Positions 1,497 through 1,640 of a stretch of 4,448 nt of DNA are shown one piece after another (position 1 is the first letter of the stretch; each line of letters starts with the position of its first letter). The position numbers and the translations under genes were made by a program. The stretch lies in the IMG/VR virus record IMGVR_UViG_2713896899_000010. One strand, given 5' to 3'. The notes beneath the pieces were generated by a model. It searched no databases. It was not told the origin of the DNA and was given only the letters and a program-made list of their open reading frames with translations. The DNA comes from a virus. Taxonomy: Duplodnaviria > Heunggongvirae > Uroviricota > Caudoviricetes.

Positions 1497-1640
1497 ATGC
1501 GAAAAACGCAGGAAAATAAACGCGTTAATCACCGAAAAGATGTGCTACGTGACCAGTTTTATCAGGGGGTTAATCCAGCAATAGCTGTGCCACTGAGAGA
1601 AATACTTAACAGGTACAAAACTTCGGAGAAGTCAAAATGA
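1497..1640 (+). CDS. Hypothetical small basic protein, 47 aa (MRKTQENKRVNHRKDVLRDQFYQGVNPAIAVPLREILNRYKTSEKSK)
   Basis: ATG preceded by GAGG (1486-1489). Its stop overlaps the next start as ATGA (1637-1640), suggesting translational coupling. No recognisable family. Confidence 0.4.
   Translation: MRKTQENKRVNHRKDVLRDQFYQGVNPAIAVPLREILNRYKTSEKSK

Follow-up and report, generated by a model that had tools for sequence, protein, structure and literature searches.

A conserved small gene of the P22 orf48 family overlaps the start of the replication initiator gene in a lambdoid prophage

In phage lambda no gene is annotated between cII (38360-38653) and the initiator gene O (38686-39585), as a preliminary description of the DNA studied here had correctly stated. 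That DNA, hereafter called the window, is a stretch of 4,448 bases from a lambdoid prophage, spanning its immunity and replication region; among public sequences it comes nearest to E. coli prophages (E2348/69, 98.1%) and to Stx2a-converting phages of the phi24B/Min27/F403 type (about 96%). Here the corresponding interval, directly downstream of a cII homologue, holds a small open reading frame (ORF) that runs into the initiator gene. The locus thus raises the questions of whether this ORF is a gene, whether it is a new one, and whether its product matters in its own right or its translation simply serves the initiator.

The signals first reported for the small ORF, namely its 47 codons, a GAGG ribosome-binding site and an ATGA joining it to the initiator start, were all confirmed in the sequence (Table 1). 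The product, MRKTQENKRVNHRKDVLRDQFYQGVNPAIAVPLREILNRYKTSEKSK, is indeed strongly basic, with 12 Lys or Arg residues, one His, and five Asp or Glu residues, a pI of 10.43 and a charge of +6.6 at pH 7. Since ORFs of 30 amino acids or more number 42 in the window, the case for this one as a gene must rest on its relatives.

Table 1. Positions of the features discussed, in window coordinates unless another sequence is named
Feature	Position	Strand	Remarks
cI-type S24 repressor	767-54	-
Cro	868-1068	+	PF09048
cII homologue	1175-1474	+	PF05269; directly upstream of the small ORF
Predicted oop antisense RNA	1418-1485	-	start at about 1485 by homology with the lambda oop 5' end GTTGAT
Terminator-like hairpin of oop	1450-1420	-	12 pairs, followed by a T-run
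Shine-Dalgarno (SD) sequence of the small ORF, GAGGT	1486-1490	+	GAGG at 1486-1489; 7 nt upstream of ATG
Predicted pO -10, TATAAT	1492-1497	-	overlaps first base of the small-ORF ATG; by homology with annotated P22 pO and with lambda
Small ORF (orf48-like, PHROG 1913)	1497-1640	+	ATG 1497-1499, 47 sense codons, TGA 1638-1640; from sequence reading and PHROG match
Invariant 22-nt stretch, GAAAATAAACGCGTTAATCACC	1512-1533		ORF nt 16-37, codons 6-12; unchanged in 17 of 17 DNA variants
Predicted pO -35, TTTATT	1520-1515	-	lies within the invariant stretch
Initiator's own SD, GGAG	1624-1627	+	inside small-ORF codons S43-E44; 9 nt before initiator ATG
ATGA overlap	1637-1640	+	initiator ATG 1637-1639, small-ORF TGA 1638-1640
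Replication initiator, 258 aa	1637-2413	+	HTH_36 N-domain, PF13730; phrog_4617/270/33384
Iteron-like repeats	1928-1991		inside initiator gene; about 2.9 tandem copies of GGTGGGGCAGGAGCTGACC(AGG)
35-codon ORF, 35 aa, MKSKIKSLLVAGYNHGWLSISFVDFWFKNLNLRES	2417-2524	+	phrog_21848, E 4.4e-26
Toprim/DnaB-like primase-helicase, 626 aa	2521-4401	+
P22 orf48	L004 4350-4496; NC_002371 32349-32495		carries the label "tail protein"
HK97 gp53	L005 2721-2882		phrog_1331

Fifty-eight related loci were compared, comprising 54 from IMG/VR, 2 from GTDB genomes, and annotated phage and E. coli loci; a tblastn search of the phage collection found only 17 near-identical records and a scan of GTDB species representatives only the 2 loci. 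All 58 retain the small ORF unbroken; it occurs in 17 distinct DNA variants, which encode 11 versions of the protein, and the disruption of the frame in close relatives that would have spoken against a gene occurs in none of the sequences seen. Variable sites in eight representative versions fall on codon positions 1, 2 and 3 in the numbers 10, 10 and 26, and across the stretch KDVLRDQFYQ nearly all third bases vary while the amino acids are unchanged. Pairwise Nei-Gojobori dN/dS in the frame of the small ORF ranged from 0.06 to 0.33 and lay mostly between 0.1 and 0.2, with dS reaching saturation, compared with 0.42 to 2.1 in the remaining five frames of the same DNA. The initiator N-domain, analysed in the same pairs, gave values of 0.03 to 0.06, so that the small ORF is under constraint, if to a somewhat lesser degree than the neighbouring gene. 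The check proposed at the outset, conservation and dN/dS across relatives, has thus revealed a coding pattern; it is this conservation, together with the coding type of substitution, that sets the small ORF above chance ORFs and marks it, on comparative sequence evidence, as a genuine gene under purifying selection.

The gene is not a new one. Its product matches phrog_1913 (E 4.7e-22, residues 1-47 on profile positions 1-47 of 48), as does P22 orf48 (E 1.3e-26), which is also the founding member of the Pfam family DUF2740 (PF10872). The DUF2740 HMM gave no match to the small-ORF protein even at E<=10, the gathering threshold of 27 bits not being reached, and Pfam and NCBIfam together yielded no meaningful match to the small ORF. 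Direct comparison with P22 orf48 produced an 8-residue BLASTP match (KDVLRDQF/KNILRDRF, E 0.01), and hhalign of the two subfamilies gave a probability of 16%; these being too weak alone, intermediate sequences were used to establish the link. The small-ORF protein is 43% identical to one such intermediate, P0097 (E 5e-10), which matches a second, P0086 (E 8e-9), and the latter scores 27.9 bits against DUF2740, above the gathering score, with P0089 and P0096 just under it.

A joint alignment, extended with divergent members, revealed a core common to the family, H-x(0,1)-K-[NDH]-[IVL]-x-R-[DVL]-[RQD]-[FYL], followed by a helix of the pattern [LMF]-R-x-x-[LI]-x(3)-K, the two conserved segments being separated by a turn around N/Q-P. 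In the window protein these correspond to H12-R-K14-D-V-L-R18-D19-Q-F21 and L33-R34-E-I-L37-N-R-Y-K41. The window and P22 subfamilies have the motif HK[ND][IV]LRD[QR]F in common at 25% overall identity, and homologues at 25-45% identity keep the length, position and motif. In the window, in P22 and in distant members alike, the protein is free-standing, of about 46-49 amino acids, and encoded between a cII-type gene with oop and the initiator; the distant members retain the order of cII, small ORF and then an overlapping initiator. When an HMM built from both subfamilies was run against 1.84 billion cluster representatives, it recovered only 18 clusters, all of short proteins, and no fusions of the family to initiators were found among the same representatives. 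The chain through P0097 and P0086 and the common pattern lead us to place the small-ORF protein in the orf48 family, as a divergent member lying outside the current Pfam model, a membership assigned through PHROG 1913 and the intermediates. That the small ORF is a real, translated gene of this family is, in our estimation, very probable.

The resemblance to P22 orf48 (P22gp50) extends well beyond the motif. Both genes occupy the slot after c1 or cII and oop and before the initiator, encode products of closely similar length (48 versus 47 amino acids) and equal pI (10.4), belong to PHROG 1913, start on the conserved junction GGAGTAATTATG under the -10 of pO, and end in a stop codon overlapping the initiator start. 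They differ in sequence (about 25% identity) and in the form of the overlap, which is 8 nt with gene 18 in P22 (ATGAGTAA) and ATGA in the window. Downstream modules also differ, with gp18 and the DnaB-like gp12 in P22 and an HTH_36 initiator and a primase/helicase in the window. A basic product is a constant of the family, all members having a pI of 9.9 to 10.7.

The description of the ORF as unannotated holds for part of the record. DNA of the small ORF is present at 95% identity or more in 116 complete E. coli genomes out of 5,426, many O157:H7 strains among them; no CDS underlies it among 40 of the 116 RefSeq genomes listed, nor is one annotated in E2348/69. It is probably this missing annotation that made the ORF look new. 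In some phage records the description does not hold: the identical protein is annotated as hypothetical in phiXuzhou21-Stx2a, APC_JM3.2 and the Salmonella phages SI5, SF6 and SI8, and its P22 counterpart, orf48, is entered as a gene. The small-ORF family and its genomic layout are in fact already known, the arrangement cII-oop-orf-O-P having been described, with orf48 noted as absent from lambda (Hayes et al. 2012, PMC3349717). Elsewhere in the literature, constructs of P22 simply include orf48. Our literature search found no paper assigning or testing a function for the orf48 family, and nothing on DUF2740; the "orf48" of PMC12373910 (gnarl1) owes its name to the numbering used in that paper and has no relation to the family. 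RefSeq P22gp50 and PHROG 1913 both carry the label "tail protein". No similarity to tail proteins was detected in sequence or structure, and every genome examined has the gene within the early-right operon, placed between cII and the initiator; given this position and the lack of similarity to structural proteins, the label looks like a propagated misannotation.

The start of the gene lies on a conserved junction. The block GGAGTAATTAT(AT)ATG is kept in lambda, P22, HK97, the window and distant family members, with divergence setting in right after the ATG, which opens O in lambda and a small ORF in P22, HK97 and the window. Aligned with the lambda O TIR, the window retains the SD and the ATG, a pO -10 overlapping that ATG, and the oop terminator and body upstream; the difference is that in lambda the start opens the initiator itself, whereas here a 47-codon cistron begins at it, with the initiator start lying 140 nt beyond. 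In HK97 the same slot is filled by gp53, which has 53 amino acids, a pI of 10.7 and an identical junction (ACAGGAGTAATTATG), and which overlaps the start of the HK97 initiator by 14 nt. It belongs to a different PHROG and has no detectable sequence similarity to the small-ORF protein, making it a positional analogue and not a demonstrated homologue. SfV orf38 and ZF40 gp13, which lie upstream of related HTH_36 initiators, likewise proved to be unrelated in sequence to the small ORF.

The regulatory elements of this junction are predicted in the window chiefly from its relatives. The -10 of pO is CATAAT in lambda and a perfect TATAAT in the window; it overlaps the ATG of O in lambda and that of orf48 in P22, where pO is annotated over the orf48 start. 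pO escaped a promoter scan of the window, its -35 matching at only 3 of 6 positions, and the window pO is accordingly a homology-based placement. An oop promoter and terminator are annotated in P22, and an OOP-like RNA has been detected experimentally in the P22-like prophage BTP1 (PMC7067206). A search of Rfam with both strands of the whole window gave no match at E<=1, so the predicted oop is recognised by no Rfam model. The cII homologue just upstream begins ATG TAA (1175-1180), compared with ATG GAA in E2348/69 and phiXuzhou21-Stx2a, a change of G to T at 1178; the second codon is a stop, after which the frame is open to its end, which looks like either a cII-null prophage or a sequencing error.

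Within the 5' part of the small ORF, the invariant 22-nt stretch spans the predicted pO -35 together with DNA upstream of it. Third positions vary at 26 of 45 codons overall and at 26 of 38 outside this block, and by a rough estimate the seven consecutive silent third positions within it have a chance of about 0.01, allowing for position. The coincidence with the predicted -35 argues that the 5' third of the small ORF is probably under constraint at the DNA level as well, and the conservation of codons 6-12 may partly reflect this constraint on pO and not protein function. The block also contains an 8-bp palindrome, AACGCGTT, and could be a protein-binding site. An extreme version of such an argument would hold that the whole interval is some 145 bp of spacer or regulatory DNA, serving pO or the spacing between pO and the origin, with a frame left open by chance or as a relic. 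The absence of a PGAP call in the RefSeq records inspected, the block devoid of synonymous variation, and the fact that lambda works without the small ORF would all agree with this, but third-position-biased variation and low dN/dS are found only in the small-ORF frame, none of the 58 loci has lost that frame, and length, position and motif persist in homologues of 25-45% identity. We consider a non-functional ORF very improbable indeed.

The other end of the gene also has a constant architecture. Stop/start overlaps are common in phage operons, and coupled ATGA cistrons are a general feature of bacterial and phage operons. The window pair resembles such cistrons in its overlapped stop and start and in having the downstream SD inside the upstream coding sequence; it differs in that the upstream peptide is itself conserved, and its coupling is predicted from the overlap and the embedded SD. 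At all loci with a readable downstream gene the overlap is either -4 (ATGA) or -8 (ATGAGTAA or GTGAGTAA), ATGA going with initiators of the HTH_36 type and the longer overlaps with lambda-O-like or gp18-like initiators. At the loci of two distant family members (L067 and L068, about 3140) the initiator apparently starts with GTG inside GTGAGTAA, preceded by GGAGG, and gene callers differ between 3140 and 3188. GGAG, GGAGG or AGGAG stands at the place equivalent to the window initiator's SD in P22, HK97, L007, L062, L064 and L067, and the embedding of this SD accounts for a [KS]-E conserved close to the C-terminus of the small protein. The RNA fold at the boundary between small ORF and initiator is mildly stable (z = -2.2); a structure masking the SD was considered and set aside, as relatives do not keep the small hairpin that covers the initiator SD.

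This overlap architecture fits translational coupling, although the initiator has its own SD, so that coupling may be dispensable, and we regard the chances that it contributes to initiator expression as evenly balanced. It had also been suggested that the ORF may simply deliver ribosomes to the initiator start. Such a leader, whose translation would bring ribosomes or open the RNA at that start while the peptide itself has no function, would account for the universality of the overlap in the family, for the sharing of slot and overlap by unrelated small ORFs such as HK97 gp53, and for the strong conserved TIR that the small ORF inherits from the position of lambda O. It fits poorly with the amino-acid conservation (dN/dS mostly about 0.1-0.2, within a full range of 0.06-0.33), with the purely synonymous run across KDVLRDQFYQ, and with a motif and helix pattern common to subfamilies at 25% identity; the initiator's own SD, and a junction RNA that is only mildly stable and lacks a conserved SD hairpin, also speak against it. 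A pure leader role is thus disfavoured by the conservation of the protein sequence, and we rate it as unlikely.

The genes that follow the small ORF are varied. In the window the initiator gene carries tandem repeats that are probably origin iterons, by analogy with those in lambda O, and the length of the initiator varies from 218 to 282 amino acids among close relatives, consistent with a varying iteron copy number. A second micro-ORF, of 35 codons, fills the gap from the initiator stop (2411-2413) to the primase-helicase gene, which it overlaps by ATGA (2521-2524); its product is more hydrophobic than that of the 47-codon ORF. The subfamily to which the small ORF belongs (47 or 48 amino acids, 80% identity) precedes initiators with either HTH_36 or lambda-O-like N-domains, a 626-aa protein equal in size to the window's primase-helicase coming next in both cases. 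Two loci, L007 and L062 (3140-3997 and 4102-5989), exhibit the lambda-O-like form (MSNVAYANFG...VEKKVAQLEDGY) instead of HTH_36, an instance of domain shuffling; the 626-aa ORF in their primase-helicase position was matched by length and position alone. The wider orf48 family precedes phrog_345 initiators paired with DnaB-type helicases. From these varied initiator and helicase partners it follows that the small protein has not co-evolved with one particular initiator.

Independence from any one initiator or helicase type is also compatible with a different reading, in which the small protein would serve the lysis-lysogeny switch formed by cII, oop and pO, by acting on cII, on oop pairing or on interference between pO and pR, and not replication. 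The small ORF invariably comes right after a cII-type gene and oop; it overlaps pO at its 5' end, as annotated in P22 and as read from the sequence in the window; pO activity influences pR transcription and lambda replication (PMC3985674); and a basic small protein could bind RNA. Against this, lambda operates the same cII/oop circuit without such a gene; the crossover of a lambda/P22 hybrid lies inside pO, with orf48 travelling together with the replication genes 18-12 (PMC3349717); and Salmonella phages share with the window a block extending from the 3' end of cII into the initiator while the remainder of cII differs. We hold a role confined to the switch to be rather improbable.

Structural comparison adds a shape to the protein. 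AlphaFold2, supplied with the family alignment, predicted helices at residues 5-24 and 27-46 with a mean pLDDT of 71, a moderate confidence; a Foldseek search of this model against PDB and BFVD returned no matches, and a sequence-profile search of PDB with the small-ORF protein returned only noise. The suggestion that so basic a product would suit binding to nucleic acid is not supported by any fold or domain match and stays conjecture.

Taken as a whole, the locus is best explained, with slightly more confidence than doubt on our part, as one in which the small ORF opens the replication module as its first cistron, is translationally coupled to the initiator, and specifies a basic two-helix accessory protein. 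Under this explanation, ribosomes on the pR transcript would load at the strong conserved SD of the junction, the TIR used for O in lambda, read 47 codons and terminate on the initiator AUG, where reinitiation, unmasking of the initiator GGAG, or both would make initiator synthesis depend in part on the small ORF being translated. The first 40 nt or so of the ORF would be of dual use, coding for protein and carrying the pO promoter. Since its sequence is under selection, the peptide presumably acts in trans; it would be a basic hairpin of two helices (about +7), a non-enzymatic factor of early replication or of early-operon control, with nucleic acid or a replication protein as its most plausible binding partner. 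The most economical guess assigns the peptide to replication initiation or to early-operon control; that it acts specifically in replication initiation or its control we propose tentatively, as a possibility that falls somewhat short of probable.

A broader and more speculative idea arises from the occupation of the same junction by at least two types of protein, those of orf48/PHROG 1913 and of HK97 gp53/PHROG 1331. Both have about 50 amino acids and a net charge of +6 to +8, without detectable similarity to each other, and both have been seen before initiators associated with a phage-encoded helicase, whereas the lambda O-P module lacks a helicase. They could mark a convergently maintained function, such as that of a nucleic-acid-binding micro-protein tuning origin firing or the interplay of pR and pO that licenses lambdoid origins. 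We think this decidedly unlikely; if true, the classic initiation scheme of the O/P type would gain a third protein.

Nothing at this locus points to a new kind of system, and it offers a tidy test case for distinguishing translational coupling from the action of a micro-protein. The practical value of the findings lies in annotation, in that a conserved gene is unannotated in the RefSeq records inspected, missed by the DUF2740 model and mislabelled as a tail protein in PHROGs and in RefSeq P22. From the standpoint of phage biology, replication modules of the P22 type and related ones begin with a conserved micro-protein, and the identical gene is carried by Stx2a-converting phages of the phi24B/Min27 type. 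As these modules drive the replication of Shiga-toxin phages, a role of the small protein in initiator expression or origin control would, if true, be of moderate interest.
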